Assembly: GCA_037200005.1 (NCBI GenBank)
Contig: JBBCGY010000001.1
Location: 889,812-953,811, forward strand
From: Alphaproteobacteria bacterium
GTDB taxonomy: Bacteria; Pseudomonadota; Alphaproteobacteria; UBA9219; RFNS01
Length of the DNA: 64,000 nucleotides
Reading direction: 5' to 3'
The position numbers were made by a program, and so were the translations under genes. Of the stretch, positions 667 through 28,517 are shown in pieces (the stretch's first letter is position 1; every line of letters begins with the position of its first letter). The notes beneath the pieces are model-generated. The model was not told the origin of the DNA. It saw only the letters and a list, made by a program, of their open reading frames with translations, and ran no database searches.

Positions 667-1610
667 ATGCTGACCGCCGCCACGTCTCAACCGGTTTCCG
701 CCGCGCCGTCCGATCTTATCAAAGATACGGATTATAACGGCTTCATGCGCGACGTCGTCGAGGCGTCGCTCAAGGTTCCGATCATCGTCGATTTCTGGGC
801 GCCATGGTGCGGCCCATGCAAACAGCTCGGCCCGCTGCTCGAGAAAATCGTCCTGAGCCTTAAAGGCGCGGTGCGGATGGTCAAGATCGATATCGACGCC
901 AGCCCGGAGATCGCGCAGCAGTTTCGCGTTCAATCCATTCCCGCCGTCTATGCGTTCTTTCAGGGACGGCCGGTCGACGGGTTCATGGGCGTTCTGCCGG
1001 AAAGCCAGATCAAGCAGTGGATCGAGCGCATCCTCAAGGTCGCCGCGCCGGAGCCGCCGCGCCGGGCGCACAAAATCCGCTGGCGGAAATAGAAACCGCG
1101 CTGAAGCATGCGGGCGAATTGCTTGCATCCGGCGATTGGCAAGGCGCTCAGGACATCTATAGCGATATCGCCGGTCTCGATCCGGACAATGCCGTTGCCT
1201 ATGCGGGATTAGTCCGCAGCATGATCGTGGGCGGGCATATGGAGCAGGCCAAGACCATGCTTGCTTCCGCGCCGCCGTCGGTTGCCAAGGACAAAGCGCT
1301 GGATCAGGCGCGTTCGGCCCTCGAACTTGCCGAGCAAGCCGCGCAGGCCGGGCCGGTGCAGGAGTTGGAAGCCAAGGCGGCGTCGTCGCCGAACGATCAT
1401 CAGGCGCGTTATGATCTCGCCATGGCTCTTGTGGCGGCGGGCAGAAAAGAAGAAGCGGTCGATCATCTGCTCGAAATCGTCCAGCGCCAGCGCGCCTGGA
1501 ACGAGGAAGCGGCGCGCAAGCAGCTGGTCAAGCTTTTTGAAGTTTTCGGCCCGGCCGATCCGTTGACCGTCAGCGCGCGCAAGCGTTTGTCCTCTATCCT
1601 GTTCGCATAG
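667..1610 (+). CDS. Thioredoxin-domain plus TPR co-chaperone (YbbN/CnoX-like). Apparent single-base frameshift near 1050-1070 joins ORFs 667-1092 and 1017-1610.
   Basis: N-terminal WCGPC thioredoxin motif (VDFWAPWCGPCKQL). C-terminal TPR-like helical region in the second frame. The two frames overlap by 75 nt in a GC run (gagccgccgcgccgggcg). Confidence 0.7.
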
Positions 1611-1611
1611 C

Positions 1612-2289
1612 ATGGGCGACGCCGTATCCCATAGGCTGACCTTGCCGTTCGCCACGCTCGAATTGCCGGAAACGCTGCCTTTATTCGTGTTGCCGAGCAT
1701 CCTGTTGCTACCGCGCGGGCGCCTGCCGCTTAATATTTTCGAGCCGCGCTATCTCGCTTTGGTGGATGACGCGCTTTCGCAGGGGCGGATGATGGGCATC
1801 GTGCAGCAAATGGAGCCTCAGGCCGAAGGCGATGCCGTGTCGCTCTATAAAGTCGGCTGCATGGGCAGGATCATGAGCTTCTCGGAAACGGAGAAGGGGA
1901 ATTACCTGCTTTCGCTTCAGGGCGTTTCGCGTTTCGGGCTGGGGGAGGAATTGCCGTCCAGGAATGGCTATCGCCGGACGCGCGCGGATTTTACGCTTTA
2001 CGCCGACGATCAAGCCGAAGCGCCGCACGGCGTCGTGGAGCGCGGACGGCTGTTCGCGGGCGTTGCGTCATTATTTCAAGATCAACAGCATTACCGCGAA
2101 TTGGGATGTCATCCAGGAGACGTCCGACGACAGCCTGATTATTTCCCTGGCGATGACCTGCCCGTTCGCGCCGTGGGAGCATCAGGCGCTTTTGGAAGCG
2201 CCGACGCTGGCCGAGCGCGCCAGGCTTCTCCTCACGCTCATCGAAATGACCACGGCTCGACCGGCAGCACGACCGGGAAGAGATCGTGA
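1612..2289 (+). CDS. Lon protease N-terminal (LON substrate-binding) domain protein. The C-terminal half reads in another frame (shift near 2050-2080) and the true stop is unclear.
   Basis: [32 protein letters not shown] matches the Lon-N domain. Downstream Lon-N-like sequence ([20 protein letters not shown]...[28 protein letters not shown]) lies in the frame of ORF 1964-2503. Confidence 0.55.
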
Positions 2290-10839: not shown

Positions 10840-10842
10840 GGC

Positions 10843-12066
10843 ATGAAACTCTATCACGCCAAATATGCGCAGCCTCTTCCTGGCGGCACGGTGACCATCC
10901 GGGAGGAGGATTTTTATCTGCCCGACGTGATCTCGGTGCGGCGGCAGTTGCGCGGACGCGGCCTGTGGCCGATCAAGATTCTCGAGCAAAAACCGCCTGC
11001 CTTCGAATGGCTGGATGTCCGCAGCCGCGAGTGGCAGAAGCAGTTGCTGCGCGCCCTGCGGTTTCAGACGGCGACCGCTTCGGCCGGCACGGCGCTTTTG
11101 AACATCATCGAAGGCGAGGCCGATGCCCGCCGCCGCATGGTGTTTCTGCCTGCGCGAACGGTGCTGAAGGGAGGCGGTTCTTTCTCCGACGCCCTGAAGT
11201 CCCTGAAGCTTATGGACGCCGCGACGATGGCGATCATCGTCTCGGGCGAGCGCGCCGGAGATTTGAAGGGCGTCATCCAGCATGCCATGCAGCATGTCGA
11301 GGAGAAAGGCAAGCAGACCAAAGTGGTGCTCGCCGCGCTCAGCTGGATGGCGTTCGACATATCCAACGTCATTTCCGCGCTGTGGGGCGCGCAGTTCGGC
11401 TTCATCCCCTATTTGCGCGCCAACGCGCCCACGAACACCACGCCCGAGCAGATGCAGAAGCTGGAGACGGCCATCACGCGCGCCTCGTGGATCAATGGTT
11501 CTCTCATCGTCATCACGACCGCCGTGATCGGCGGCGCGATCGTGCTGGCCGCGGCGTTCTGGATGAACCGGCACAAAGCCGACCATCTGGCGGCGCGCCT
11601 TGTCATGAGGGTGCCGCTGTTCGGCGAGTATCTGCGGAATTCGGCGCTGTTCGACACTTGCCGCCTGATAGCCAGGCTCTTGAACGGCAAGGTGCCGCTC
11701 GATGAGGCGCTCAAGATCATCATCGAAACCACCATCGAGCCTTCGGCGCGCAGCTATTGGCGCGAATGCAGAAGCCGTATCATGAAGGGCATCGAGCCGA
11801 GCAAGGCTCTGGCGCGCTGGCCTCTCACCAAAGGCGAACGCGACCAGATTGCGACCGTGCAGTCGGTCGATCAGCTTACCGAAGTCTATGAGGCCATTGC
11901 CGCCGAACGGCAATTGATGGCGAAGGCAACGCAGCGGCGCATCGTCGTCAGCGGCGTGGCCTGCATGATGACGTTGTTCGGCGCCGTGGTTCTTACGATG
12001 ATCTATCTGCTCATGATCCAGAATTCCGGGTTCATGGACAGCTTGCAGGGAATGCGCGAAGGATAA
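10843..12066 (+). CDS. Inner-membrane platform protein (GspF/PilC family)
   Basis: Two T2SSF-like repeats (ERAGDLKGVIQHAMQHVEEKGKQ; GKVPLDEALKIIIE). Three TM segments. Start 4 nt after the ATPase stop. Confidence 0.85.
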   Translation: MKLYHAKYAQPLPGGTVTIREEDFYLPDVISVRRQLRGRGLWPIKILEQKPPAFEWLDVRSREWQKQLLRALRFQTATASAGTALLNIIEGEADARRRMVFLPARTVLKGGGSFSDALKSLKLMDAATMAIIVSGERAGDLKGVIQHAMQHVEEKGKQTKVVLAALSWMAFDISNVISALWGAQFGFIPYLRANAPTNTTPEQMQKLETAITRASWINGSLIVITTAVIGGAIVLAAAFWMNRHKADHLAARLVMRVPLFGEYLRNSALFDTCRLIARLLNGKVPLDEALKIIIETTIEPSARSYWRECRSRIMKGIEPSKALARWPLTKGERDQIATVQSVDQLTEVYEAIAAERQLMAKATQRRIVVSGVACMMTLFGAVVLTMIYLLMIQNSGFMDSLQGMREG

Positions 12067-12080
12067 AAACAAGGATAAAA

Positions 12081-13112
12081 ATGCTGCAGGCTCTTCTCAA
12101 AGAAAAAATGTCCCATGTCGCCGGAAAAGCGCGGCGGGTCGCGGCGTCGATCGAAACCGCCGCCGCGCCCTCGTCCGTCGAAGAGACCGCCGTCACGACC
12201 TCCGGAGGTTTCTTCGGCGGCCAGGTGGCGCTGGACGATTTCTTCATTCCCGGCGAGCTGGTCGGCGGCGCATGTCCGCGCGTGCGCGGCCAGGAACGGG
12301 AAATTGCCTGGCATGCGGCGGCGGAGGCTTGCGATAGCGAGCGCCTGCACATGGTATGGAGCGCGACCGAAGACAGGGTATGGTATCTGGCGGCGCGTTC
12401 CGCGGAATTCGCTTCCAAGCCGTTTACCTGGTGCCCGTTCGCTTCGCTGCTGCCCGGCATGAAAGACGCGACGCCGGGGATGGTTTGCTACGCGTATTAT
12501 TCCGACGAAGCGGCGACGATGATGACGGTGTCGTCGGACACGCTGCAAATTCACCGCGGCACGCCCGCCGTCGTCCGCGCCAAGACCGAGCGGGTCATAC
12601 GCGAACTGGGCGACGCCGCTTCCATCGAAATCGATCCTGAGATGGTCATGGGGCTTACGCCGGTCGCATGGTATTCGGTCTCGCTGTTCGAAGACCGGGC
12701 CAGGCGCTTGCTTACGCTGGTGTCCGTCGCCGCGGCGATGCTGTGCCTGACGGTCGCCTTTCTGGTCTGGCTGATTGCTTCGCTTTCCATCGTGTCCCAC
12801 CGCAGCAATCTCGAGGCGGTTCAGACGCGCACCCAGGAAAGAACCATGCAGCTCATGCAATCGGTCGAAAAGCTTCGCGCCAGCGTCATGCGCGACCAGA
12901 TCGCGCGTTTCACCGAGCTTAACGAAGGTTTGGTGCAGGTCGGCGGATGGCTTAAATTTTATCAGATCAAGAGCAATGCCGTGCGCTGGCGCGCTTTGCT
13001 GCCCGTCAACGTGACCGGCGACAGGATCAAGGAATTGGGCGGCAAGCTTCTGGATACCAAAGAACAGGGCGTGCTGGTCGGAACCGATAAACTGACCCCT
13101 GACGGCAAATGA
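12081..13112 (+). CDS. Bitopic assembly protein: cytoplasmic domain, single TM, periplasmic coiled coil (GspL / PilM-PilN-like)
   Basis: About 185-aa cytoplasmic N-domain, TM helix LLTLVSVAAAMLCLTVAFLVWLIASLSIV, periplasmic helical region. Position follows the platform gene. The family assignment is inferred from topology, not from motifs. Confidence 0.4.
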   Translation: MLQALLKEKMSHVAGKARRVAASIETAAAPSSVEETAVTTSGGFFGGQVALDDFFIPGELVGGACPRVRGQEREIAWHAAAEACDSERLHMVWSATEDRVWYLAARSAEFASKPFTWCPFASLLPGMKDATPGMVCYAYYSDEAATMMTVSSDTLQIHRGTPAVVRAKTERVIRELGDAASIEIDPEMVMGLTPVAWYSVSLFEDRARRLLTLVSVAAAMLCLTVAFLVWLIASLSIVSHRSNLEAVQTRTQERTMQLMQSVEKLRASVMRDQIARFTELNEGLVQVGGWLKFYQIKSNAVRWRALLPVNVTGDRIKELGGKLLDTKEQGVLVGTDKLTPDGK

Positions 13113-13122
13113 TGGAGTCGGC

Positions 13123-13677
13123 ATGAAAGCCATGGGAAACATATCCGACCTGTTGTCTCCTCTCCTTATCGCCAAGGTATTGCGGTCGCTTGACCGCACG
13201 GCGATGGTGATGATGATCGTCGCCTGGTCGGCGGCGATGGGGATGATGGGAATCGCGATTTACACCGTCAAGACGGCGGGCCGCACCAGCCAGCAGGCCG
13301 AAGCCGCCGCCGCGCTGGAACCGGTGGTGCCGACTATGCAGCGGACGGCATTGCCCCGCGCCGACCTGGAAAAACTGGCCGACCGGCTTGCCTCGCGCTA
13401 TCGCGGGGTATCTTTCGTGGCGACCCCGGATAACACCCTGGATATTGCGAACAGCGAGCCCAACAATTTCATGGACTGGCTGGCCTCGCTCAGTTATCTC
13501 GACACGATCGCGCCGGAGGCGCGATGGACGATCCGCGACCTGTGCATCGGCAGCGAATGCGGCCAGGCGCTCATGCGGGCCAGAATCGTGGGAGAACGGG
13601 TCACATTTAAAGCGCCCGCCCAGCCGGATCTGGAAAATATCGGTGGCGACGGGGAATCCGCTCCCGCCAAGCCATAA
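13123..13677 (+). CDS. Bitopic N-in single-TM periplasmic protein (GspM/PilO-like)
   Basis: TM helix AMVMMIVAWSAAMGMMGIAIYTV near the N-terminus, about 130-aa periplasmic domain. Position follows the L-like gene. Confidence 0.35.
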   Translation: MKAMGNISDLLSPLLIAKVLRSLDRTAMVMMIVAWSAAMGMMGIAIYTVKTAGRTSQQAEAAAALEPVVPTMQRTALPRADLEKLADRLASRYRGVSFVATPDNTLDIANSEPNNFMDWLASLSYLDTIAPEARWTIRDLCIGSECGQALMRARIVGERVTFKAPAQPDLENIGGDGESAPAKP

Positions 13678-13936
13678 TTGATGCTCATGCGCTAGCAATT
13701 TTGTCACACTTGCGTTCAATTCTAGATTGGCTGCGCGCGATACGATTATTTAGGGTAGTATTCCGAACAGGAGTTCTTAATGATCGTCTGGTATGATTCA
13801 ACTCGGCAATTTGCTTAACTTAGTCTTAACCTAAGAACCGTAATACATGTGCGTTACGGCTTATGCGGTTTTGGCAAGGTGAGCGATTGCTGCTACTCCA
13901 GGACGATTGGTGCCTGGAACATAAGGGGAGATAAAA

Positions 13937-14611
13937 ATGCAAAACAAGAACGTCTCGCGGCTTCCTAAGGACGCCGGTATCGCTATCGGCCCTATCCTGT
14001 TCGTGGTAGCCATCCTTGGCATTCTGGCCGCGGCGATCGCGGCGGGCAGCGGCTCCTTCACGGGAAGCAGCGCTTCAGAATCCAGCAAAACCAAGGCGGC
14101 CGCGCTGATCGACATGGGGCAAAACCTCAAGGTCGGCGTCGATAGGATGCTTGGCCTCGGTTATGACGGCGGAACCACCTCGGGCACGTCCATAGACATT
14201 AATCCGGTCAATACATCCGGCGACGACGATTTATTCTCGCCGTCAGGCGGAGGAATCAGCGCGCCATCGGTAGCCATGGCCAACACGCCATCCACCGATA
14301 GATGGAACTATTCCAGGCATATTGTCACTAATATGGGAAGTGCAACAGCCACGACCGGCCGGGATCTTACGGCGTTTATACGGATCGCGGCGACCGTGTG
14401 CAATCAAGTCAACGTCAAGGTTGTTGGCGCTCCGGCGACTTTGGATGTGACCACGAACGTCAACTATGCGGCAGACGCCGGCAATCTTGCGACGGATGAA
14501 GATGGAAATTGGGCGCCGGCGCTTGCAGGGCAGATGACGGGCTGTTTCAAGAATACCGCCTCCGCTCCTTGGGACGGATACTGGTACTATCAGGTTCTCG
14601 CCATCCAATAG
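13937..14611 (+). CDS. Pilin-like protein: basic leader, 23-aa hydrophobic N-terminal segment, C-terminal Cys pair. Possible type IVb-class major pilin without Glu5.
   Basis: MQNKNVSRLPKDAG then IAIGPILFVVAILGILAAAIAAG. Cys residues about 50 aa apart near the C-terminus (TVCNQ...TGCFK), resembling a pilin D-region. Strong RBS AAGGGGAG. Confidence 0.5.
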   Translation: MQNKNVSRLPKDAGIAIGPILFVVAILGILAAAIAAGSGSFTGSSASESSKTKAAALIDMGQNLKVGVDRMLGLGYDGGTTSGTSIDINPVNTSGDDDLFSPSGGGISAPSVAMANTPSTDRWNYSRHIVTNMGSATATTGRDLTAFIRIAATVCNQVNVKVVGAPATLDVTTNVNYAADAGNLATDEDGNWAPALAGQMTGCFKNTASAPWDGYWYYQVLAIQ

Positions 14612-14801: not shown

Positions 14802-15758
14802 ATGATATTGACGAGTCCTGACCCTAAGTTGAGCATCATGAGCGTTTCTGCATTGAAAAAATCAGGGAAAAAATGGGGCCGCGCGGCTCTCCTGGCGGCG
14901 TTTTTTATTCTCTCGCGCGCCGCTTCCGCATTTGCCGCGCCCGAGCCGTGGGGCATCGGGATGCAGTCGGGTATCTCGCCTCTGCGCGACCGCATGGATG
15001 ATTTTCATAATCTGCTGCTTTATGTCATTTTCGGCATCGTGATTTTTGTTCTGGGCCTGCTGGTTTACGTGATTTTTCGCTTCAACGCCCGCGCCAATCC
15101 GACGCCCAGCAATTTCGCCCATAACACGCCGCTTGAAATCGTTTGGACCGTCATTCCGATCATTATTCTCGCGGTTATCTCGGTGCCCTCCATTCAATTG
15201 CTGTATTTCGGCGACAAGCTTGCCAAGCCGGACATGACGCTCAAAATTACCGGGCACCAATGGTACTGGTCCTACGAATATCCCGATCACGGCAATATCG
15301 CGTTCGATGCCCGTCCGATCTGGGATAGCTCCGCGACCACCAGCGAGCAGGCGGCGGAGCTTCTCAAGGATGCCTCTCCGAAATGGCTGATCCCGACCGC
15401 CGAGCCGCTCAGAATGCTGGAGACCGACAATCGGCTGGTGCTGCCGGTAGGCGTGAATATCAGGCTATTGTTTACCGGCGCGGACGTGATCCATTCATGG
15501 CTGGTGCCGTCGCTCGGCGTGCAGGAAGCGGCCATTCCCGGCAGGCTCGGCGAACGATGGGTCAAGGCTGACCGCGAGGGCATTTATTATGGGCAGTGCA
15601 CCCTCATCTGCGGCGCGGGACACGGCTATATGCCGATTGTCATCGAGGCGGTTTCGCCGGAGCGTTTCGCCGCCTGGGTCAAGACCAAGCATGATCAAGC
15701 GGACGGCGGCGCCGGGCTGGAGCCCGGCGGCATCCGGCTCGCGCGCATGAGCAAGTGA
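14802..15758 (+). CDS. coxB: Cytochrome c oxidase subunit II
   Basis: CuA site CTLICGAGHGYMP, WYWSYEYPD, signal peptide. Alternative start at 14838 (MSVSAL). Confidence 0.9.
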   Translation: MILTSPDPKLSIMSVSALKKSGKKWGRAALLAAFFILSRAASAFAAPEPWGIGMQSGISPLRDRMDDFHNLLLYVIFGIVIFVLGLLVYVIFRFNARANPTPSNFAHNTPLEIVWTVIPIIILAVISVPSIQLLYFGDKLAKPDMTLKITGHQWYWSYEYPDHGNIAFDARPIWDSSATTSEQAAELLKDASPKWLIPTAEPLRMLETDNRLVLPVGVNIRLLFTGADVIHSWLVPSLGVQEAAIPGRLGERWVKADREGIYYGQCTLICGAGHGYMPIVIEAVSPERFAAWVKTKHDQADGGAGLEPGGIRLARMSK

Positions 15759-17360
<1,602 letters not shown>

Positions 17361-17378: not shown

Positions 17379-18302
17379 GTGATATCGAGAAATGCCACCA
17401 TATTAACCCCGCCCTTCGCCGTTGCATCCGGCGGCGAAGCGACGCTCGGCGATTATTTCGCGCTGCTCAAGCCGCGCGTCATGTCGCTGGTGGTCTTCAC
17501 CGGCGTCGTGGGCATGGCGCTGGCGCCGGGCCATATCCATCCGGTGCTGGGCCTGATCGCGATCCTGTGTATCGCCATGGCTTCGGGCGGCAGCGGCGCG
17601 GTGAATATGTGGTACGACCGCGATATCGACGCGGTGATGCAGCGCACGGCGGGCCGTCCGATCCCTTCGGGAAAAATCGCGCCGCACGAGGCGATAGAAA
17701 TCGGTAGCATGCTGATTTTGGCTTCGGTCGGGCTGATGGGCCTCGCCACTAATTGGGCGGCAGCGGCGCTGCTCGGCTTCGCGGCAGCTTTTTATATATT
17801 CGTTTACACCATGGGATTGAAGCGGCGGACGCCGCAGAACATCGTTATCGGCGGCGCGGCGGGCGCTTTTCCGCCGATGATCGGCTGGGTGGCGGTCACG
17901 GGCGACGTGAGCTGGATGCCGGTGATTTTGTTCCTGCTGATCTTCTTTTGGACGCCGCCGCATTTCTGGGCGCTGGCCCTTTATCGCAGCGGCGATTACG
18001 CGCGCGCAGGCGTGCCGATGCTGCCGGTCGTCGCCGGAGCGCGCGCGACGAAGCTGCAGATGCTGCTTTATACGCTGGCGCTGCTGCCGCTGGCGCTCGC
18101 GCCCGTGATGATGGGACAAGCCGGATGGATTTACGGCGGCGGCGCGGCTTTGCTCGGCGCGATGTTCGTCATTCATGCCGTGCGGGTCTGGTTCGACGAA
18201 ACCGAGCGCAGCCCCCGCGCCATGTTCAAATTCTCGCTGATCTATCTGGCTGGATTATTCGCGCTGCTGCTGATCGATCATTGGATCGGAGCGGCGGCAT
18301 GA
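17379..18302 (+). CDS. ctaB: Protoheme IX farnesyltransferase (heme O synthase)
   Basis: UbiA-family polytopic protein. Conserved position after coxA. Confidence 0.9.
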   Translation: MISRNATILTPPFAVASGGEATLGDYFALLKPRVMSLVVFTGVVGMALAPGHIHPVLGLIAILCIAMASGGSGAVNMWYDRDIDAVMQRTAGRPIPSGKIAPHEAIEIGSMLILASVGLMGLATNWAAAALLGFAAAFYIFVYTMGLKRRTPQNIVIGGAAGAFPPMIGWVAVTGDVSWMPVILFLLIFFWTPPHFWALALYRSGDYARAGVPMLPVVAGARATKLQMLLYTLALLPLALAPVMMGQAGWIYGGGAALLGAMFVIHAVRVWFDETERSPRAMFKFSLIYLAGLFALLLIDHWIGAAA

Positions 18303-18427
18303 CGCAGGACGAAAGAAGCGTAGTTGCCGCGCGGCGCTTGCGGGCGCGCAACTGGGCGGTGCTGGGAATTCTGGCGGCGTTCGTCATCGCCATTTACGCC
18401 ATCACGATCATCAGGGTTCACCATTAA
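18299..18427 (+). CDS. Small single-TM protein between ctaB and ctaG (CoxF-like small ORF)
   Basis: ATGA overlap with the ctaB stop and TAATG overlap with the ctaG start. Encodes MTQDERSVVAARRLRARNWAVLGILAAFVIAIYAITIIRVHH. Confidence 0.35.
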   Translation: MTQDERSVVAARRLRARNWAVLGILAAFVIAIYAITIIRVHH

Positions 18428-19011
18428 TGCCCGGCGATAAAAATATTCGCATGGCGATGAAGCTGACGGCGCTGGTCGTCGCGATGATCGCTCTGTCGTT
18501 CGCCGCCGTGCCGCTTTACGATGTGTTCTGCAAGGCGACGGGCCTCGGCGGCACGACGCAGCGCGCGGCGAAAGCTCCCGAGAACGCGGCTGAAACCCGG
18601 ACCGTCACCGTAACCTTCAACGCCGATGTCGCGCCTGGCCTGCCTTGGGAATTCAAGCCGGAAACGGCGTCGATGCCGGTTCGAGCCGGGCAGGCGGCCA
18701 TGGTAAAATTCCGCGCCAAAAACCTGTCCGACCGCCCATTGGTCGGCACGGCGGTGTATAACGTCCAGCCTGGCAAGGTGGGCCTGTATTTCAACAAGGT
18801 GGAATGCTTCTGCTTCCAGGAGCAGATGCTGCAGCCGGGGCAGGAGGCCGAATTTCCGGTGACGTTCTTCCTCGATCCCGACATGGCCAAGGATAAAAAA
18901 TTGGATGATGTGCAGGTCGTCACATTGTCCTATACTTTTTTCCTGGCGAAGGATCAAAGCAAGGCCAAGCTGGCGCAGAGCAACGCGCCGGCGCAGATTA
19001 ATCAGAATTGA
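18427..19011 (+). CDS. ctaG: Cytochrome c oxidase assembly protein CtaG/Cox11
   Basis: Copper-binding CFCF motif (KVECFCFQEQ), single N-terminal TM. Confidence 0.9.
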   Translation: MPGDKNIRMAMKLTALVVAMIALSFAAVPLYDVFCKATGLGGTTQRAAKAPENAAETRTVTVTFNADVAPGLPWEFKPETASMPVRAGQAAMVKFRAKNLSDRPLVGTAVYNVQPGKVGLYFNKVECFCFQEQMLQPGQEAEFPVTFFLDPDMAKDKKLDDVQVVTLSYTFFLAKDQSKAKLAQSNAPAQINQN

Positions 19012-19023
19012 TGCGAGGTTTTC

Positions 19024-19866
19024 ATGAGCGCAGAATCCCCTCACTATGAAGACAGCGGCCTGCCGCAGCCCTATCATTTGGTGAAGCCGTCGCCCTGGCC
19101 GATGGTCGGCGCTCTGGCCGCCGGAATGCTGGCCGCCGGCATAGTCTTGTTCATGCATAAGGTGAAGCTGGACGGATTCGAGATCGGCGCGAAGGGCATA
19201 TTGGTCGGCCTCGCGGCGGTTCTGGCCGTCATGTTCGTCTGGTGGCGCGACGTGATCCGTGAGTCGGTGGTCGAACGCGCGCATTCGCCGATCGTCAAAA
19301 TCGGCCTGCGTTACGGCATGGCGCTGTTCATCGCTTCCGAAGTCATGTTCTTCGCGGCCTTTTTCTGGGCCTATTTCAACAGCGCGCTATTTCCCAATGA
19401 GCATATCGGCGGCGTCTGGCCGCCCGCGAATATCAAAACCTTCAACCCGTTCGACATGCCGTTCATGATGACGCTGATCCTGCTGCTTTCGGGCACGACG
19501 GTCACCTGGGCGCACCATGCCGCCATCGAGGGCGACCAGCGCGGCATGAAGCGGGCGCTGGCCTGCACGGTCGGGCTTGGCGTGCTTTTTTCCTGCTTCC
19601 AGGCGTTCGAGTATCATCACGCCACCTTCACTATCAAGGACGGCATTTTCGGCTCGACCTTCTACATGGCGACCGGTTTCCATGGTCTGCATGTCATCAT
19701 AGGAACGATTTTCCTTGCCGTATGCTGGTGGCGCGCGGCCAAGGGGCACTTCACGCCGGAAAGCCATTTCGGGCTGGAAGCCGCCGCCTGGTACTGGCAT
19801 TTCGTGGACGTCGTATGGCTGTTCCTGTTCACGTCGGTTTATATTACCGACTGGTATCATCACTGA
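19024..19866 (+). CDS. coxC: Cytochrome c oxidase subunit III
   Basis: 7-TM CoxC family (FHGLHVIIGTIFLAVCWWR, WYWHFVDVVWLFLF). Confidence 0.9.
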   Translation: MSAESPHYEDSGLPQPYHLVKPSPWPMVGALAAGMLAAGIVLFMHKVKLDGFEIGAKGILVGLAAVLAVMFVWWRDVIRESVVERAHSPIVKIGLRYGMALFIASEVMFFAAFFWAYFNSALFPNEHIGGVWPPANIKTFNPFDMPFMMTLILLLSGTTVTWAHHAAIEGDQRGMKRALACTVGLGVLFSCFQAFEYHHATFTIKDGIFGSTFYMATGFHGLHVIIGTIFLAVCWWRAAKGHFTPESHFGLEAAAWYWHFVDVVWLFLFTSVYITDWYHH

Positions 19867-19951
19867 GTTTCCGGCTGAAAGTAATACGCGGCTTGCCTTT
19901 TTCCGGCCGCGTTATGTAGATTGCCGTGGTTCGTATATTAAGGAGACATAG

Positions 19952-20355
19952 ATGAAGACGATTGCCGCCGCATTGGGTTCTTTCGTTATTGCGACAAACC
20001 AGCAATGGGATGCCTTGCCGTTAGGCGAGCGCAATGCCGTCACGTCTTCGGTTCGGGGCTTATTCCCTGAATCTTCCCGCCTTGTGGTTAAAAGGGACCA
20101 TGTTTCGGCGCAGTTTCTGAAGACTGGAGTAACCTTGGCTTATGATCTGGATAACGGCATCATGACAGCCTCCACGCCCTATGCATCGCAGATTACCGTG
20201 GTGGAGCCTATAACCGAGAGACAGTACGCGGCTTTGCAGCAAGGCCGGAGGCGAGGTCGTTACCGTCGATATCGAAGGCAGCAATCTTGTCTACAGCGCC
20301 CTGCGCTCCATTCTAACGCGGCCCCATATACGGGAAGCCCTGAGAAACGATCTAT
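19952..20355 (+). CDS. Hypothetical protein (about 135 aa) with a probable frameshift near 20240. Lower GC than its neighbours.
   Basis: Strong RBS AAGGAGacatagATG. The ORF 19952-20413 degenerates into Arg-rich text after ...QYAALQQ. The adjacent frame reads KAGGEVVTVDIEGSNLVYSALRSILTRPHIREALRNDL and stops at 20355. Confidence 0.35.
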
Positions 20356-20373
20356 AGCACGCCGAAAACGAGG

Positions 20374-20781
20374 TCAGAGATCCAAGCCGAGGAATTTCCT
20401 GACGTCGCCATAGGTCATGCCTATCTGCCGTGTAACGTCGGGCCGGTTCTCGCCCTCATGTGTTGCCTCGATAATGTTGAATTCGTTACCGGCGTGTGAA
20501 TATTCGACGCGGGTTTCATGGGTTTTCGGTATTATGTTATAAGGATTTGGCTCCATCCGTTGGCCATCGATGATAAAATATGCCACCGAGACAACGTCGC
20601 ACTTGAACCCGAGAATCTTTTCTCTCTCATGGCGGATAGGCTCGACCGTTGCGCCCCGAGCCGCCTTTGTAGCCAGTATCTCATTATACAAGGGTAGAAC
20701 TTTTGTCCGCAGCGCGCGCATCATCGCGCGCGCGTTTTTATATTGCTGCAATGTTTTGCCGGTTAATGGTTCCATCGTCAT
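20374..20781 (-). CDS. Hypothetical protein (135 aa). No recognisable domain.
   Basis: Balanced amino-acid composition. Convergent with the previous gene. Lies inside the otherwise conserved cox locus. Confidence 0.4.
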   Translation of the reverse strand: MTMEPLTGKTLQQYKNARAMMRALRTKVLPLYNEILATKAARGATVEPIRHEREKILGFKCDVVSVAYFIIDGQRMEPNPYNIIPKTHETRVEYSHAGNEFNIIEATHEGENRPDVTRQIGMTYGDVRKFLGLDL

Positions 20782-20889
20782 AAGCTCGCTTTATATATGT
20801 GATCTTCGAAAAGATATTAATGTGCGTTTCGGGTTGAAAGCAATTACAATCAGTTCTTTACCAGTTCTCCATGGTTAAACGGCGCGACG

Positions 20890-21237
20890 ATGACTGAAGC
20901 GGTTTCCATCAAAAATGTATTGTTTAGCCGCTGTCCCCGTTGCGGCAACGGCTCGCTGTTCGAGGGCTTTCTGAAGGTCAAGCCGTCATGCGACGAATGC
21001 GGCCTCGATTTCACCAAGGCGGATTCCGGCGACGGGGCGGCGGTGCTGCTTATCTTTCTTGTCGGCTTCCTGACCGTGCCGCCGATGGTCATTCTCGCGC
21101 TTCATGTCGACTGGCCGCTATGGGTTCATGCCATCCTGGCGAGCGTCGTGATCCTCGGCCTTGCGCTCGGCGCGATGCGCCCCGCCAAGGCGCTGATGAT
21201 CGCGTTGCAGTACCGGCACCGGCGGGAGACGTTTTAA
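20890..21237 (+). CDS. DUF983-family membrane protein with N-terminal Cys4 zinc ribbon
   Basis: [10 protein letters not shown]...CDECGLDF followed by two TM helices. Conserved partner of surf1 in alphaproteobacterial cox loci. Confidence 0.75.
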
Positions 21238-22346
21238 TGAGGAAAGGAAGCGTTGATCGCGGCGATCCAGCTACATATATAAGTGCCAGCCACATTGCCA
21301 ACAGCATTTATACTGCTCTGTTCCGCAAAATTATATATTTTTTGAAGAATTCCAGGACTTTCTTTTTTGATGGTCATTAAGGCTTGCTTTATTTCAGCCT
21401 CATCACTTTTCTGTACTCCATTTCTAATTTTAGTTTCTATAATTTTTAAGGCAGTGCTGAGGGTATTGTTATGAGATTGGGTTAAGGACTCCACTACAAT
21501 TTTTAGTAATTCCAGTTCGGGGGTTGGCTTATCAAGAGCTATGGATAAGAGTGTAGTCATTTCTTGTAGTTGGCTTTGAAGACTTTTATTATGTGAGGCT
21601 AGGTGTTCGCTGTGGCGTTGCTCCACTTCTAAGAGCTCAGTCCGATTTTGAATCTGCATTTCGGCAATTCTTAACTGCTGTTTCATTTCTAAAACCTTTA
21701 TTTCGTTGCCAAGAAATGTTTCGGGAGTTATCTCTCCTTTGAGAACCAAATTATAGTTGTGCAATGTTTGTTCTACCTGCTCTTTTTCTCCATCAGGTGT
21801 TTCTATTACTAAAATGACTTTTAAGCCTTCTTGCTGAATGGAAACGCGTACATCTTTGTTGGCATATTTATCTCGAACGATACTGGAAAAATTTGATAGA
21901 ATGGTCATACCAGCAGCGTGATACTCTGGTGGAAATTCTATTGATCTGACAATCGATGAAAAACCTTCTTTTGTTAGCAATTCATGCCAATTTATATCGA
22001 CGCCCAATCCTTTAATAAATTCTTTGGCAAAGTCATTCCGAGCTTCGGCCCCTGGTTCGCATATGAGTGCTGCACATAGAACAGTGCATTCATCACACAC
22101 AAATACTGTGGGGCTTCCAGAGATAAGTTTACGAACTTCATGTTGGCTCTTTCCACAAAAGGAGCAGTAAACTATCTCGCTACGAATGCGAACAGTCTGG
22201 GCTTGATGGGCAGCTGCGTCCGCAATAGCGGACATCTGGCGGCCAGCGTCCGCCTGCATGTTTTTGAGTATTTCCGTCTGTCGATCTATCAGGTCTCTGA
22301 GAGCGGCTGCGCTTAATATAGGTGGAGATACCTGATCGTCAGACAT
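21234..22346 (-). CDS. ClpX-type C4 zinc-finger domain protein with AT-rich coiled-coil C-terminal region. Function unknown.
   Basis: [35 protein letters not shown] closely matches the ClpX N-terminal zinc-binding domain. No AAA+ module. The 3' two-thirds is about 35% GC in a roughly 60% GC context. Confidence 0.65.
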
Positions 22347-22447
22347 GAATAATGCTCCAAATTATACGATACACAACGCCAATGCTTGCATTATCATTCC
22401 ATTTATTCAAGTAACAATATAAGTGCAAACTTCTCTAGGAGTTCCTT

Positions 22448-23167
22448 TTGCCCCAATACCGCATCTTCAACGGCACATTCACCCCGCGTCCCGGTCCGGC
22501 GCTGTTCACGATATTCGGCGTCGGCGTGCTGCTGGCGCTCGGCTGGTGGCAGCTCGACCGCATGGTCTGGAAGCATGATCTGATCGCAAGGATCGAGGCG
22601 GGCTTGAAGGCCGAGCCCGTCGCGCTGCCAGGCGCGATCCCCGATCCCAAGGCGCTCGATTATGTTCGCGTGCAGGTGACGGGGGTTATGCATCACGACA
22701 AGGAATTCCATCTCGCCGCGCGCGATAAATACGGGAGCTTCGGCTATAACATCCTGATTCCGCTTGAAACCGGCAGCGGATTTATTCTGCTCAATCGCGG
22801 TTTCGTGCCGTCGAAGAAAAAGCCGCCGGAAACCCGGCCCGAAGGACAGATTCAGGGCGCGGTGACGATCACCGGCATCGCGCGGGTTCCGGGCAAGCCG
22901 TCGATTTTCATGCCGGATAACCAGCCCGAAAAGAATTTCTGGCTGTTCATCGATTTCCCGAAAATGGCTGCTGTGGCCGGGATTAAGGCATTCATGCCGG
23001 TCGTGGTCGAAGCCGACGCGGCGCCCAATCCCGGCGGCTATCCGATAGGCGGGCAGACGCGGACGGATTTTCCCGATAATCATTTGGTCTATGCGATAAC
23101 CTGGTTTAGTCTGGCCGTGGCGCTGGCGGCGATATTCTTTCTCTCTCACTGGCGGCGCGAAGCATAA
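22448..23167 (+). CDS. surf1: SURF1-family cytochrome oxidase assembly protein
   Basis: N- and C-terminal TM helices. LVYAITWFSLAVAL. Position in the cox locus. Confidence 0.85.
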   Translation: MPQYRIFNGTFTPRPGPALFTIFGVGVLLALGWWQLDRMVWKHDLIARIEAGLKAEPVALPGAIPDPKALDYVRVQVTGVMHHDKEFHLAARDKYGSFGYNILIPLETGSGFILLNRGFVPSKKKPPETRPEGQIQGAVTITGIARVPGKPSIFMPDNQPEKNFWLFIDFPKMAAVAGIKAFMPVVVEADAAPNPGGYPIGGQTRTDFPDNHLVYAITWFSLAVALAAIFFLSHWRREA

Positions 23168-23367: not shown

Positions 23368-24750
23368 TTGCGTTATCACAGCACACGCGGGCAAGCGCCG
23401 GAGCTTGATTTTCTGGACGCCGCGATGGCGGGCCTGGCGGCGGATGGCGGCCTTTATTTGCCCAAGGCATGGCCCAAAATCGCCGAAGCGGACATGGTTT
23501 CGTGGCGGGATCAGCCATACCGGAATATTGCCTTTAACGTCTTAAAGCCTCTGATCGGTGACGCTTTAACGAATGCGGAGTTGCAAGGCCTGATCGATCG
23601 CGCGCTCGCGTATTTCGCCCATCCCGATATTGCGCCCTTACGCCAATTAGACGAACGATTGTGGCTGCTCGAATTGTTTCACGGCCCGACGCTGGCATTC
23701 AAGGATATGGCGCTGCAATTCCTGGGACAATTGTTCGATTTCATGCTGGCGCGAAGCGGCAAGCGCGCGACGGTGATCGGCGCGACATCGGGTGACACCG
23801 GCTCGGCGGCGATGGCGGGCTGCGCCGGATGCAAGAATCTCGACGTTTTTATTCTCTATCCGCATAACCGGCCCAGCGAGATTCAGCGCCGCCAGATGAC
23901 AACCCACACCGCGCCGAATATTCACGCCATCGCCGTCGAAGGCAGCTTCGATGACTGCCAGGCGCTGGTGAAGGCGATCTTCAACGACCCCGCAGCGCGG
24001 GCGGCGTTCAATCCGATAGCGGTGAATTCGATCAACTGGGCGCGGATCGCGGCGCAGATCGTCTATTATTTCGTCGCGGCGATAAGGCTGGGCGCGCCGG
24101 CTGTCGCGCCGAGCTTCGTCGTGCCGACGGGCAATTTCGGCAATATCTTCGCCGGTTTCGCCGCGATGCAAATGGGACTGCCGGTTTCGCGGCTGGCGGC
24201 CGCGACCAACCGCAACGACGCGGTGCATCGCTTTTTCACCGAAGGGGAAATCATTCCCGCCGTCGTGCAGCCAAGCCTCAGCCCCAGCATGGATATTCAA
24301 GTCCCCAGCAATCTGGAGCGGTTGCTGTTCGCGCTGACGGATTATGACGGCGCGGCGACGCGCAAGATCATGGCCGCGGACCATCCGCGCCTGTCGCCGA
24401 TCATGCTTGGAAAGGCGCGGCAATATTTCACGTCGGCGCGGGTCGACGATGCCGAAACCTTGAAGGCCATGACGGATATTTATGGCGGAACCGGCTATTT
24501 GCTCGATCCCCACAGCGCGGTCGGAGTCGCCGCCGCGCGGCAGCTGGCGCGCGAACTGCCGGAGCCGGTCGTCTGCCTCGCCACCGCGCATCCGGCGAAA
24601 TTCCCGGAAGCCGCCGCCAGCGCCATTCACCATCCGCTCGATCCGCCGCCGGAGATCGCGGCGCTGTATGATCTGCCGGAGCGCATAACCATCTTGCCGT
24701 CCGACTACCGGCAAGTCACCGATTATATCAGGGAACACAGAACAGCATGA
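23368..24750 (+). CDS. thrC: Threonine synthase
   Basis: PLP-lysine motif FHGPTLAFKDMALQ. TTG start. 460 aa. Confidence 0.9.
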   Translation: MRYHSTRGQAPELDFLDAAMAGLAADGGLYLPKAWPKIAEADMVSWRDQPYRNIAFNVLKPLIGDALTNAELQGLIDRALAYFAHPDIAPLRQLDERLWLLELFHGPTLAFKDMALQFLGQLFDFMLARSGKRATVIGATSGDTGSAAMAGCAGCKNLDVFILYPHNRPSEIQRRQMTTHTAPNIHAIAVEGSFDDCQALVKAIFNDPAARAAFNPIAVNSINWARIAAQIVYYFVAAIRLGAPAVAPSFVVPTGNFGNIFAGFAAMQMGLPVSRLAAATNRNDAVHRFFTEGEIIPAVVQPSLSPSMDIQVPSNLERLLFALTDYDGAATRKIMAADHPRLSPIMLGKARQYFTSARVDDAETLKAMTDIYGGTGYLLDPHSAVGVAAARQLARELPEPVVCLATAHPAKFPEAAASAIHHPLDPPPEIAALYDLPERITILPSDYRQVTDYIREHRTA

Positions 24751-25244
24751 CGGTCCGGATTTCAAAACTCGCCAATGGTTTGACGGTGGCCACCGACACC
24801 ATGCCCGATTCCTACAGCGTCGCCTTCGGCGTGTGGGCGGGGGTTGGAACCCGCGACGAGCCGAAAGAGGCGCAAGGAGTCGCGCATCTGGTCGAGCATA
24901 TGCTGTTCAAGGGTACGAAACGGCGCAGCGCCATCGAAATTTCCGAGGCGATGGAGGGCGTGGGCGGCTACATGAACGCCTATACCTCGCGCGAAGAGAC
25001 GGCCTATCACGCGCGCATGCTGCCCGAGCATGTCGAGCGCGGCTGCGATATCATATCCGATATGCTGATGCATTCGGTGATCGATCCGGTCGAGCTTGAC
25101 CGCGAACGCGCGGTCATCATCCAGGAAATCGGCCAGTCTCTCGATGCCCCCGACGATCATATTTTCGATCTGATGCAGGAAACGGCTTTTCCGGGGCAGG
25201 CAATCGTGAAAGCGCCATTATATGACGACCAAAAGGAATCATAA
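24747..25244 (+). pseudogene. M16-family zinc peptidase truncated after about 155 aa. The 3' remainder is missing.
   Basis: HxxEH motif HLVEHMLFKG and the N-terminal M16 fold. Homology ends near 25207 (FPGQAI), about 270 aa short of full length. The region overlaps the end of a minus-strand island gene. Confidence 0.65.
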
Positions 25245-26201
25245 CCGAACCCCAGCCACGGATTATGACTCATCACCGCCTTGATGACGGCAGGCCAGAT
25301 GACTGTTCTGCCCGATAACGTGGCATCGCGCCCCATCATTGCGGTTGCCGATGCGAGTTCTGACGTATCGACCATGAACATCATCGGCACAATAACAACC
25401 AATATAATTACCCCCGATATATGATCCCACTCTGGTTCTTCTCATCAATTTCGTAAGATAAAAAATCCCTATCATCGACGTCAGCAAAAGCCATGCGCCG
25501 CGCGATAACGACCCAATGGCAAGAATGATTGATATAACGAACAGAAAAATCCCCATTCTGCGCGATGTTTCGGCATGCATCAGCAGGAGAGCGATCAATG
25601 TGCTGGCAACCATCGTGCTGCCCATTGTGTTCTTGTGGTTAAAATAGCCGCGAAATGCCGGATAATGCTTATCGTGATGGATGCCCTGCGCCGGGTCGAG
25701 AATGACCGCCAGCAAGGTCACTAGACAGACGGCAATCATGCAGTAGCCTAGAATCCTAAGGAATTGCGGCGACGAGTACCTGGTTACGAAATAGAAGGCC
25801 AGCATCGTACCGCCGAGCGCATTGATCGAACGCCTGAGCGTCACGGTCGGATCAATCGACCACACGACTGAAAGCACCGTCAGGACGCCGATCACCGCCA
25901 AAGGCCAGGCGGCCTTGATCACGGGAAGGCTTTTTCTCCATCTGATCACCAGATAAAGCAGCGCGTAAAAATAAATCGGCATAAGAATGATCTGGCGAAT
26001 TGGATTGACGATATCGCCCTGCCCTCTTTGAGCGATCAAAGGCGAGCCTACGTGCGAGTCTTCGTCACCGCCCGTGCCGTAGAAAAGCACGCCGCATGCG
26101 CCCGTAACCATAAGAATGGCGACCAAGATAAGCAAGAATTCGAGGCTGAAAATCCTCACCCGCTTATTCTTATTCAAGCTTTCACTATACTGCGTATCCA
26201 T
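25157..26201 (-). pseudogene. O-antigen ligase/Wzy_C-like polytopic membrane protein, frameshifted near 25400
   Basis: Multi-TM N-terminal part in ORF 25263-26201. Wzy_C-like C-terminal piece (GRTVIWPAVIKAVMSHNPWLGFGYDSFWSSY) in ORF 25157-25402 in another frame. Confidence 0.45.
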
Positions 26202-26204
26202 ATC

Positions 26205-27354
26205 TTACGCCTTCTCCAGAAATTCATGCAGCGCGCGCCACATCGGTTTGCGCCGCATATTATCATCAAGGGGCAGCCCCCGGATCCGTCGCCCTGTGGG
26301 ATTGCTCTTATTCCACTTCGCATTGGACAGCCAGCTATGGCGGTCGCTGAGACCCCAGGTCAAAATTTGTTTCGGCACGGCGACCGAAGAAATAATATCC
26401 AAGAATTCCTTCGTTTTAGCCGCGACCCGCTTATCGTTTTCTTCTTGCGTAGCGCGGGCGGAATCAAAAACGTCCAGCTCGGTAATGATGACTTCCAGGC
26501 CCAGACTCTTCGCTTCCTTGCAGAAATTCTCGAGAGGATCCAGCTTCGATCCGGTATGCATGTGAGCTTGCAGCCCCACCGCATGAATGGGAACGTTTTT
26601 GTCCTTAAGGCCGCGAAGCAGCTTCAAAGCCGCCTTGGCTTTAACAGACCCCGCCTCGATCTGGTAATCATTATAGACCAATTGCGCATCAGGATCCGCC
26701 TGCGCCGCCATCCGGAAAGCTTTTTCGACATATGAATCCCCCATGGCCTCCCGCCACGGCGTATCCCGCATCTGGTCTCCAAGCCACCATGCCTCACCGG
26801 GCTTGAGAGCTTCATTGACGACATCCCAGGATAAAAATTTTCCCTTATAGCGGGACATGACGGCGCCGATATGCTCTTCCATCAAAGCCTCGGCCTTGCT
26901 TTTATCGTCTTCCAGCGCCTTCTTGGCCCAAGCGGGCAAAGCCTCGTACCAGATCAGCGTATGCCCGCGCATTTTCATGCCATGGCTCTGCGCGTATTCA
27001 AGCAGCTTGTCGGTCGGGCCGAAATTCCATTTGTCACGCTCCGGATGAATTATATCCCATTTCGTGGCGCCCTCCGCGACGACGATGTTGCACTCCCCGC
27101 GCCACCGCATCGCTGAAATCCGCTTCATAATCTTTTCCGCCCTTGGATATATCCAGCCGCGCGGCATCGGTGGCGCAGCCGAAATAAATTCCCTTCTTGG
27201 CCGCCGTTTCACGCAGGGGCGGCAGGGATTCATAATCATATCCGGCCGCAGCGGTCTGCGCCGCCGCGAATTTCGGCAGCATCGCTCCAGCCGCGACCGC
27301 TGCGGAAAGCTCGATGAAGTCGCGCCTTGTCAAATCTCCGGTTCGATTTTTCAT
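26205..27354 (-). CDS. GH10 glycoside hydrolase (endo-beta-1,4-xylanase family) with Tat signal, frameshifted near 27100-27240
   Basis: Catalytic regions WDVVNEAL and ITELDV. The Tat leader and N-terminus (TRRDFIELSAAVAAGAMLPKFAAA) are in ORF 27034-27354 in another frame. Paralog of 30679-31818. Confidence 0.65.
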
Positions 27355-28517
27355 GCGGCCTCCTCTCTTTTCCTGGATGGAATGTACTTTTCCATGGCCT
27401 GCCTTAATTCAATATCCTCGACAAAGTCTTCCGGCGAGAAGTCGCTTTCCTTATAACGCCCGTATTTCCAGTTATCGGAAATAGGCTTGAAATGGCGATA
27501 GACATACTCCTTCGCGGGCAGGAATTTGCTCGGCTGGTTGGCGATGCTGTGCACCGTCCATGTATTAAGGGCCGCAGAGCATTTGCGAGGCACCGCGCAC
27601 CATTTGTTGGCGCATTTCGACGTGTCTTCTTTCTCAAAATAATAATAATGCGCATGGCGGCGCACGCCGCCCGTAATTTCGGCGGCGCTCGCATTGCTTA
27701 TCCAGACTCCGCCGAAATGCGTCACGCCGAAGATCGAAGCCTCGGCGCGCTCATAGACGGATTGCGGCGATTTCGAGACGATCAGCTCGTCGATGTCGCA
27801 GTTCAGTACGCTCCGCGCCTTTTGCAGGAACCTGAAACGGGCGTGCTGAAGAACGCCAATCTGGCAGAAAACGGAATCCCACGGCGCGATCTTCCCGCCG
27901 ACGCCGCCGGAAACTCCCCCCTGAGGCCCATATTTGAAGGGCCACGAAATCACCAGGATGAGAAGGCCGGGAAACGCCGACGAAAGCGCATCCTGCAGTT
28001 CGCCCGGCGAGTATTTGTCCGAATTGTTGTCGTAGAACAGGACCGCATCCGTTCCCTGGCTGTTCACGTAATATGTTATCCAGTCTATGATCCAATGGAT
28101 CTCATTGTTCTTGGATAGCGTCAGCAAGACGCGCTTGCCCGCGAACAGGCCGTTCCCGTCCGGCTGGACATCAATGTCGAAAGAGCCGAGATCGCCGCGA
28201 AGGGATATTTTCTTGTCGTCGCTCTTAATCCAAATATCGTTAGCCAGTTTTCGATCATAAATCCTGTTTTGGAAATTCAAGGCTCCCAGCTTGCTCGCAA
28301 AGTATGGATATCGCGTCAGGCGCTCTTTAAGGTTAAAAAGCGGCGGCCCCTGAAAAACAACGTATTTTCCTGACGCATACACGTCATAAAACAGCGTCTT
28401 CCAATCATATTGGCCTTCGTAATTTTCATTCCTTAGGCTTAATGGCCTTGGCGCATCCCTGGCAACAGGCACGTCGTCAGGAATCGTGCAAATGCTTAGC
28501 TTTATCGTATTGGGCAT
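27351..28517 (-). CDS. Hypothetical protein with DxD-like motif (NCDIDELIV). Possible glycosyltransferase. About 45% GC.
   Basis: 388 aa, no TM segment, AT-rich codon usage unlike its neighbours. Sits within the polysaccharide gene cluster. Confidence 0.35.
   Translation of the reverse strand: MPNTIKLSICTIPDDVPVARDAPRPLSLRNENYEGQYDWKTLFYDVYASGKYVVFQGPPLFNLKERLTRYPYFASKLGALNFQNRIYDRKLANDIWIKSDDKKISLRGDLGSFDIDVQPDGNGLFAGKRVLLTLSKNNEIHWIIDWITYYVNSQGTDAVLFYDNNSDKYSPGELQDALSSAFPGLLILVISWPFKYGPQGGVSGGVGGKIAPWDSVFCQIGVLQHARFRFLQKARSVLNCDIDELIVSKSPQSVYERAEASIFGVTHFGGVWISNASAAEITGGVRRHAHYYYFEKEDTSKCANKWCAVPRKCSAALNTWTVHSIANQPSKFLPAKEYVYRHFKPISDNWKYGRYKESDFSPEDFVEDIELRQAMEKYIPSRKREEAA

Follow-up and report, generated by a model that had tools for sequence, protein, structure and literature searches.

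What two small genes of lower GC content are doing in the middle of a cytochrome c oxidase gene cluster, where they may have come from and whether their presence affects the genes downstream are the questions raised by the cox locus of an uncultured deadwood alphaproteobacterium. The source is contig JBBCBH010010965.1 (1.83 Mb) of a PacBio HiFi metagenome co-assembly of four deadwood samples, and the window, by which we mean the whole 64-kb stretch of DNA that was analysed, has a mean GC content of 57.5% and contains core genes, including a ribosomal protein operon. On the plus strand of the window, coxB (14802–15758), coxA (15771–17360), ctaB (17379–18302), a Coa3-like ORF of 42 aa located between ctaB and ctaG, ctaG (18427–19011) and coxC (19024–19866) follow one another, the last of these encoding cytochrome c oxidase subunit III (MEJ0062487.1; PF00510, COX3; GC3 0.79). 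They are followed by the segment under study (19867–20889), the DUF983 gene (20890–21237; MEJ0062489.1; PF06170, E = 1.1e-27; GC3 0.78), a second inserted region that fills the gap between DUF983 and surf1 (21238–22447, 1210 bp), surf1 itself (22448–23167; PF02104, E = 1.7e-46) and thrC (23368–24750). The coxC and DUF983 genes are the native left and right flanks of the segment, and surf1 is native as well.

Two insertions in a conserved gene order

The preliminary description of this DNA had started from a conserved coxC-DUF983-surf1 order, broken here by a lower-GC segment of about 1 kb, and both observations hold. For the comparison, 80 genome loci with CoxC, taken from the matches listed, and 80 metagenome loci with DUF983 gave a set of 160 loci, in which the neighbouring genes were located by tblastn, and the gap statistics were obtained from the 113 loci holding both genes. 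In these, the median distance between coxC and DUF983 was 44 bp (95th percentile, 224 bp), versus 1023 bp in the window, and a gap of at least 900 bp was present, among the 113 loci from the matches listed, in two Rhizobium loci only. The GC content of the segment was 50.9% compared to 57.5% for the window, and the GC3 of both of its genes, designated orfP (plus strand) and orfM (minus strand), was 0.60 compared to 0.72–0.82 in the flanking cox, DUF983, surf1 and thrC genes.

A homologue of orfP or orfM was found in 0 of the 160 cox loci from the matches listed. The synteny comparison proposed in the preliminary description thus bore out its suggestion of accessory DNA lodged in a conserved operon, which is lineage-specific and of deviating composition. 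The conserved position expected of a cox biogenesis gene was likewise not observed in this set, the nearest relative in which is 83% identical in CoxC; the pair could be conserved within its family beyond the relatives sampled. This nearest relative, L168, is represented by a 6-kb JGI contig (Ga0501180_007973), the thrC product of which is 67% identical to that of the window. Its coxC-DUF983 junction is about 800 bp long and lacks the pair; it is occupied by an unrelated 154-aa minus-strand orphan with weak MORN_2/DUF2963-like repeats. Homology of this gene to orfP or orfM was considered and rejected (p = 0.14–0.83).

The two Rhizobium loci with long gaps, those of Rhizobium sp. WW22 (L053) and R. 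lusitanum (L061), have this junction occupied by a P-loop kinase-like gene on the minus strand, accompanied in L061 by a second ORF. The insertions in L053, L061 and L168 resemble the one described here in that a minus-strand gene lies immediately upstream of DUF983 and is divergent from it, within a spacer of 0.8–1.9 kb; they differ from it in their cargo, which is unrelated in each case and shows no resemblance to orfP or orfM. The presence of unrelated genes in L168 and Rhizobium at this position indicates that the coxC-DUF983 junction is a recurrent landing site, with different minus-strand cargo in at least four independent lineages. This repeated use of one junction is a useful side observation of the present study.

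The second insertion, which separates DUF983 from surf1, is distinct from the orfP/orfM segment. It carries a minus-strand gene (21234–22346) for a ClpX-type C4 zinc-finger protein of 370 aa (PF06689, E = 2.1e-13), with a GC content of 0.41 and a GC3 of 0.36. The gap of 1210 bp that it creates can be compared with a median of 10 bp and a maximum of 642 bp otherwise among the loci examined; in L168, DUF983 and surf1 overlap by 4 nt. Full-length homologues of the zinc-finger protein sit in islands together with integrase, ParE and TIR genes, and this small family, recurrent in such islands, is arguably a more promising lead than the pair itself. Co-occurrence of orfM or orfP with the zinc-finger family was considered and discarded, as no such genes were present beside its homologues in six loci. 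In the wider neighbourhood, the M16 peptidase gene following thrC, which is intact in L168, is cut in the window to 165 aa, the remainder being absent from the window, and a lower-GC minus-strand cluster follows. Like the zinc-finger gene, this region looks foreign, and such further disturbance close by favours the reading of the segment as accessory DNA.

Two similar open reading frames, one with an apparent change of frame

The minus-strand gene orfM (20374–20781) is intact and encodes the 135-aa protein that had been predicted for this strand; it is present in the ORF list and annotated in GenBank as hypothetical (MEJ0062488.1). A second ATG at 20775 would give a product of 133 aa, and the ribosome-binding site is weak. 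Its codon pattern is that of a coding sequence (GC1/2/3 of 0.54/0.38/0.60, purine at position 1 of 0.65), and, of the six frames, its own received the best score from a codon model fitted to the genes on either side. Upstream, orfM is separated from the divergent DUF983 gene by an AT-rich spacer of 108 bp (20782–20889), where the GC content in 300-nt windows falls to 0.47–0.48.

The plus-strand gene orfP begins 85 nt after coxC. The spacer (19867–19951) contains a weak 8-bp hairpin (19886–19893/19905–19912; the fold z-score of the spacer was just −0.95) and, at 19940–19945, the AAGGAG ribosome-binding site already pointed out in the preliminary description, which lies 6 nt before the ATG at optimal spacing and is the best Shine-Dalgarno match among the approximately 35 starts inspected. 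No promoter-like site was found on the plus strand of this spacer by pattern scan, and orfP would accordingly depend on the cox transcript, being translated from the 3′ end of that transcript with the help of its own strong ribosome-binding site. In the ORF list, orfP is an uncorrected frame of 153 aa (19952–20413), with an Arg-rich tail that extends 40 nt into the 3′ end of orfM. The 153-aa product was absent from the protein collections, no GenBank protein is recorded between coxC and orfM, and orfP was skipped by both the database gene caller and the GenBank annotation.

The statement that orfP needs a frameshift near 20240 to give a protein of about 135 aa is supported by the codon statistics, which switch frame near 20243. 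The 97 codons of the 5′ part in frame 1 (19952–20242), starting with the hydrophobic N-terminus MKTIAAALGSFVIA, have the best score of the six frames and GC1/2/3 values of 0.54/0.45/0.60. Beyond approximately 20243, frame 1 takes on non-coding properties (GC2 0.65, GC3 0.47, purine at position 1 0.39, −1.1 bits/codon), and it is frame 2, open from 20214, that is coding-like there (20244–20357; GC1/2/3 of 0.64/0.39/0.64, purine at position 1 0.64, −0.19 bits/codon), reading AGGEVVTVDIEGSNLVYSALRSILTRPHIREALRNDL and then a stop codon. One extra base at about 20243, within the interval 20230–20250, accounts for this +1 change, and the frame-repaired product has approximately 134 aa; its stop codon would lie 16 nt from that of orfM. 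Inspection of the sequence at 20230–20250 revealed no slippery heptamer, prfB-like context or long homopolymer. Programmed frameshifting was thus considered and judged unlikely in view of the missing heptamer and prfB-like context, and we take the change for a simple insertion of one base, a consensus error being the less likely reading. The case for this putative disruption comes from the codon statistics and from the alignment to orfM described below, both of which favour a +1 shift near 20243.

The two proteins have no recognisable motif, as had been supposed. Scans of both ORFs and of the frame-2 tail against Pfam, NCBIfam, PHROGs and PADLOC gave nothing credible, the best family match being that of orfP to TrfA (E = 0.047), which is below threshold and unrelated to toxins. 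Among 5.8 billion proteins, orfM matched only itself and the repaired orfP matched nothing. In an exhaustive HMMER search of 1.84 billion representatives, orfM found itself and one weak match (E = 7.6e-4), P0002, a phage tail-fibre-like repeat protein of 1324 aa. The latter was rejected as a homologue and attributed to the multiplicity of its repeats: when a profile was built from its 15 repeats, orfM reached 4.3 bits against it, a score exceeded by 2 of 2000 shuffled controls, while orfP was not reported at all. At the DNA level, orfP was found neither in metagenome contigs nor in viral contigs, orfM was not found in viral contigs, and a two-sequence alignment of the pair retrieved nothing from viral contigs either. 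Plasmid and phage records, searched at the DNA level and by tblastn, contained nothing under E = 0.1. PDB sequence searches with the single proteins and with the two-sequence profile gave nothing below E = 0.4, and a Foldseek search of the PDB with the low-confidence model of orfM gave no match at E ≤ 0.001; the single-sequence AlphaFold models of the two proteins reached pLDDT values of 43 and 46, too poor for use. No RNA family was found by Rfam over 19700–22600 at E ≤ 1, and the insert has no paralogues or repeats elsewhere in the 64-kb window.

The one new finding about these orphans is their resemblance to each other. The repaired orfP product and the orfM product, of 134–135 aa and both ending in DL, align collinearly with 25–26% identity, starting near residue 22/29 and extending to the very end, and BLASTP aligned them at 26% identity over 92 aa (E = 0.036). 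Compared with shuffled sequences, the Smith-Waterman local score was 43 versus 26.6 ± 4.6 (p about 0.007), the semi-global score was 37 versus 10.8 ± 5.2 (p = 0.0006–0.0013), and the local score with BLOSUM45 was 69 versus 36 ± 6.3 (p = 0.001). When 1688 real protein segments were used as the null, the same local score of 43 stood against 26.0–26.1 ± 4.4–4.8, with a fraction of 0.005–0.0065 reaching it, and the semi-global score of 37 stood against 8.9–9.5 ± 5.2–5.7 (fraction 0–0.0012). The halves of the alignment were not significant singly (p = 0.05 and 0.14–0.34). The semi-global p value was 0.0006 with the repaired orfP versus 0.16 with the unrepaired 153-aa ORF, and the best local alignment of the frame-2 part of orfP was to the C-terminus of orfM. 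That the alignment is lost without the repair independently favours the frame change.

Such likeness (p about 0.001) is suggestive of diverged paralogues that would have arisen by an inverted, tail-to-tail duplication, a mildly unusual feature of an otherwise ordinary event. Because the copies stand at 25% identity and yet are open bar one frameshift, both would seem to have been under long-term purifying selection in the past. Most likely, the duplication is older than the arrival of the genes in this genome, the pair having come in together, since the GC3 of both copies has not converged on that of the host.

The possibility that the two ORFs are not genes but chance open frames, in a spacer that is non-coding or long dead, should be weighed here. 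Gene callers skipped orfP, the ribosome-binding site of orfM is weak, the searches returned no homologues and the structure predictions had low confidence; moreover, one ORF of at least 135 codons appeared in 9% of first-order Markov simulations of the segment. However, a pair of ORFs of that size appeared in only 0.4% of the same simulations (p = 0.004), the codon-position composition of both ORFs is of the coding type in no frame but the predicted one, and the Shine-Dalgarno sequence of orfP and the mutual resemblance of the products also speak against chance. This explanation is, in our opinion, unlikely.

Origin, function and probable effect on the operon

The reading that we prefer, and to which we would assign a probability of roughly 55%, is that orfP and orfM form a partly decaying and probably imported pair of orphan paralogues, specific to this lineage and without an assignable function, which acts mainly by interrupting the operon. 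According to this reading, a small lineage-specific piece of accessory DNA bearing two diverged copies of one orphan gene, tail to tail, would have been acquired, most likely from a lower-GC source, and inserted into the short coxC-DUF983 spacer by a traceless route. At present, orfP would be disabled or altered by its 1-base frame change and orfM intact; the pair would have no role in oxidase assembly, and its present-day effect would probably be architectural. The insertion, its composition, the coding signal, the lack of homologues and the frame change in the assembled sequence are direct observations; paralogy, foreign origin, decay, termination and operon splitting are inferred.

The route of entry can be considered from the borders of the segment. 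No integrase, transposase or recombinase gene lies in 19867–20889, the nearest tRNA genes are at 365 and 38320, and the direct and inverted repeats flanking the segment are only short ones at chance level. Of the properties by which a mobile element or genomic island is recognised, the markers (integrase, terminal repeats and tRNA) were absent, and a deviating composition together with a patchy distribution, as judged from the loci listed, was present. Neither a donor nor a homologue was found, so it is the composition that points to a foreign origin.

If the pair were native after all, it might serve the aa3 oxidase as accessory factors of this lineage, for example small proteins of assembly or regulation, which would be conserved in the family and co-expressed with coxC. 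Such a role would fit the location of orfP, 85 nt after coxC and equipped with a strong ribosome-binding site but no separate promoter, as well as its hydrophobic N-terminus, a conceivable signal peptide or membrane anchor; close relatives are essentially unsampled. However, the pair is absent from the 160 cox loci listed, with an unrelated gene in its place in L168, its GC3 is unlike that of the cox genes, and the break affects orfP, the very gene whose position suits co-expression best. Motifs of metal binding or of known assembly factors are lacking, and Pfam and NCBIfam gave no match to assembly factors such as Cox11/CtaG, Surf1, Sco, PCuAC or Coa3-like proteins. We regard this possibility as quite doubtful. 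A bolder variant, in which orfP and orfM found a new protein family that is restricted to a scarcely sampled lineage, has no relative among about 6 billion predicted proteins, is kept as an inverted pair and is tied to the oxidase, appears equally doubtful to us; under it, the highly expressed cox transcript, running antisense through orfM up to the hairpin at 20712–20743, could gate orfM by the respiratory state.

The preliminary description had suggested that the pair could be a toxin-antitoxin-like or other accessory module, and the toxin-antitoxin part of this suggestion was not supported. As a two-gene addiction or defence module, in which a toxic protein is neutralised by its partner, the segment has in its favour that its DNA looks foreign, that the two genes in it are small, adjacent and similar in size, and the neighbouring zinc-finger insert, whose family is found in islands with ParE/HTH and TIR genes. 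Type II toxin-antitoxin modules likewise consist of two small adjacent genes in accessory DNA, but they are co-transcribed, whereas orfP and orfM are convergent, on the plus and minus strands, respectively, with separate 5′ regions. Furthermore, at E ≤ 1 no toxin, antitoxin or defence model was matched in Pfam, NCBIfam, PHROGs or PADLOC, the sub-threshold TrfA similarity of orfP being the sole exception to the empty result, and the plus-strand partner is frameshifted. The two proteins, collinear at 25–26% identity, appear to be copies of each other, and paralogous partners would not be a toxin and its antitoxin. Such a module is very unlikely.

Finally, it is highly improbable that the insertion, or the frameshift alone, is an artefact of HiFi metagenome co-assembly: the contig does come from a co-assembly of four samples and the frame change is a single base, but the independent assembly GCA_015689235.1 contains a 1053-bp contig with a matching layout (partial minus-strand gene, identical DUF983 and partial zinc-finger gene), owing to which the coxC-DUF983 insert is not taken for an assembly chimera. 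This contig ends short of the frameshift site and thus speaks for the insertion; the site itself lacks the long homopolymer that is the usual context of HiFi errors.

Within the preferred reading, that of an imported and partly decaying paralogue pair, the main consequence would concern transcription. A pattern scan revealed a strong terminator-like hairpin on the plus strand at 20712–20743, GCGCGCGC-ATCATC-GCGCGCGC followed by GTTTTTATAT, with eight G-C pairs and the U run GUUUUUAUAU. It lies within the 5′ part of orfM, which is encoded by the opposite strand, 355 nt past the stop codon of the repaired orfP, and it is kept in both the minimum-energy and the centroid folds, the segment having a z-score of −2.0. 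Plus-strand transcripts from coxC would run antisense through orfM and meet this hairpin and its U run. If termination at this site is real, nearly the whole of orfM is covered by antisense cox transcript, and DUF983 and surf1 would both depend on initiation within the AT-rich 108-bp spacer (20782–20889). No consensus promoter was found in this spacer on either strand by pattern scan; in alphaproteobacteria, an undetected consensus promoter is not unusual. From this arrangement, the insert probably splits the cox operon into separate transcription units, in keeping with a suggestion of the preliminary description.

Probable orphan cargo in a respiratory operon compared with known systems

If the preferred reading is true, the locus illustrates, modestly but cleanly, how a respiratory operon of strong conservation gathers orphan cargo at a preferred junction, and how such cargo can re-wire the transcription of DUF983 and surf1, the assembly genes further downstream. 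It opens no new mechanism and settles no open question, and one of the two proteins is probably dying.

Two known systems may serve for comparison. The aa3-type oxidase cluster, coxB-coxA-ctaB-ctaG-coxC-DUF983-surf1, is the system in which the pair is embedded, and orfP is placed so as to be read with the cox transcript; at the same time, the pair is not conserved together with the cluster and resembles none of the known assembly factors. The other system comprises the ORFan genomic islets found in conserved operons, which usually have an integrase, a tRNA gene and direct repeats, whereas the orfP/orfM segment is without them, and of which diverged inverted paralogues, as orfP and orfM appear to be, are atypical. 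In other respects the segment resembles these islets closely: it is lineage-restricted, of deviating composition and without homologues, it occupies an intergenic spacer of a core operon, and it appears to be partly pseudogenised.

Hairpin opposite orfM and further ORFs of the cox neighbourhood

On the plus strand, opposite orfM (the minus-strand member of the two small convergent orphan genes between coxC and DUF983), positions 20712–20743 carry the perfect palindrome GCGCGCGC-ATCATC-GCGCGCGC, followed by GTTTTTATAT, which from its sequence is a predicted near-canonical intrinsic terminator. Read on the orfM strand, the same palindrome encodes NARAMMRALR.

Immediately upstream of coxB, a T2SSE/T2SSF ATPase-platform pair is followed by three ORFs of 343, 184 and 224 aa (9061–14611, plus strand), none of which has a Pfam match in the precomputed gene tables; the N-terminal segment of the 224-aa ORF is hydrophobic and pilin-like. 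A 42-aa ORF (18299–18427, plus strand) overlaps both ctaB and ctaG by a few bases, and the precomputed annotation gives it Pfam YCO2/Coa3-like matches.

Zinc-finger gene before surf1 and shortened M16 gene after thrC

DUF983 and surf1 are themselves separated by the gene of a 370-aa zinc-finger protein (21234–22346, minus strand), located inside the insert 21238–22447. PF06689 (E 2e-13) marks a C4 zinc finger of the ClpX type in this protein; its long C-terminal region matches no family. The GC content of the gene is 0.41 and its GC3 is 0.36. Its full-length homologues form a small family with 32–48% identity, and every one of them is AT-richer than its host. All of them are located in islands, which hold a phage integrase and a Schlafen-like gene together with ParE/HTH (L162), or DUF4145 along with TIR and HD proteins (L167). 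No GenBank protein accessions were found between DUF983 and SURF1.

Directly after thrC, the M16 peptidase gene (24747–25244, plus strand) encodes only 165 aa, against 405–418 aa in the relatives L168 and L011, and the missing ~260 residues were not found anywhere within the window. Beyond this gene comes a minus-strand cluster (25263–28517) with a GC content of 0.51–0.55, whose products are a membrane protein and two more proteins, 344 and 388 aa long. The truncation, together with this adjoining lower-GC cluster, has the appearance of a further insertion or deletion.

The coxC/DUF983 junction in other genomes

The source lineage is very poorly sampled: the top CoxC identity among the matches listed for GTDB species representatives was 63–66%, JGI metagenomes gave at best 58% for DUF983, and the core proteins of the locus are mostly the sole members of their 90%-identity clusters. 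In the closest relative found (L168, JGI Ga0501180_007973; CoxC 83%), where coxC appears broken into two frames, the junction (1438–2241) carries an unrelated orphan gene of 154 aa (1521–1985, minus strand), whose product contains YFxNGKLHRxxxxPAxIEY-type repeats and gives weak matches to MORN_2 and DUF2963. Independent invasion of this junction is also seen in Rhizobium sp. WW22 and R. lusitanum, in which the coxC–DUF983 interval contains a minus-strand kinase-like gene with a P-loop (GAPRSGKSS), at L053 6912–7862 and L061 7840–8565, respectively, accompanied in R. lusitanum by an additional 269-aa ORF (L061 7007–7816, plus strand).
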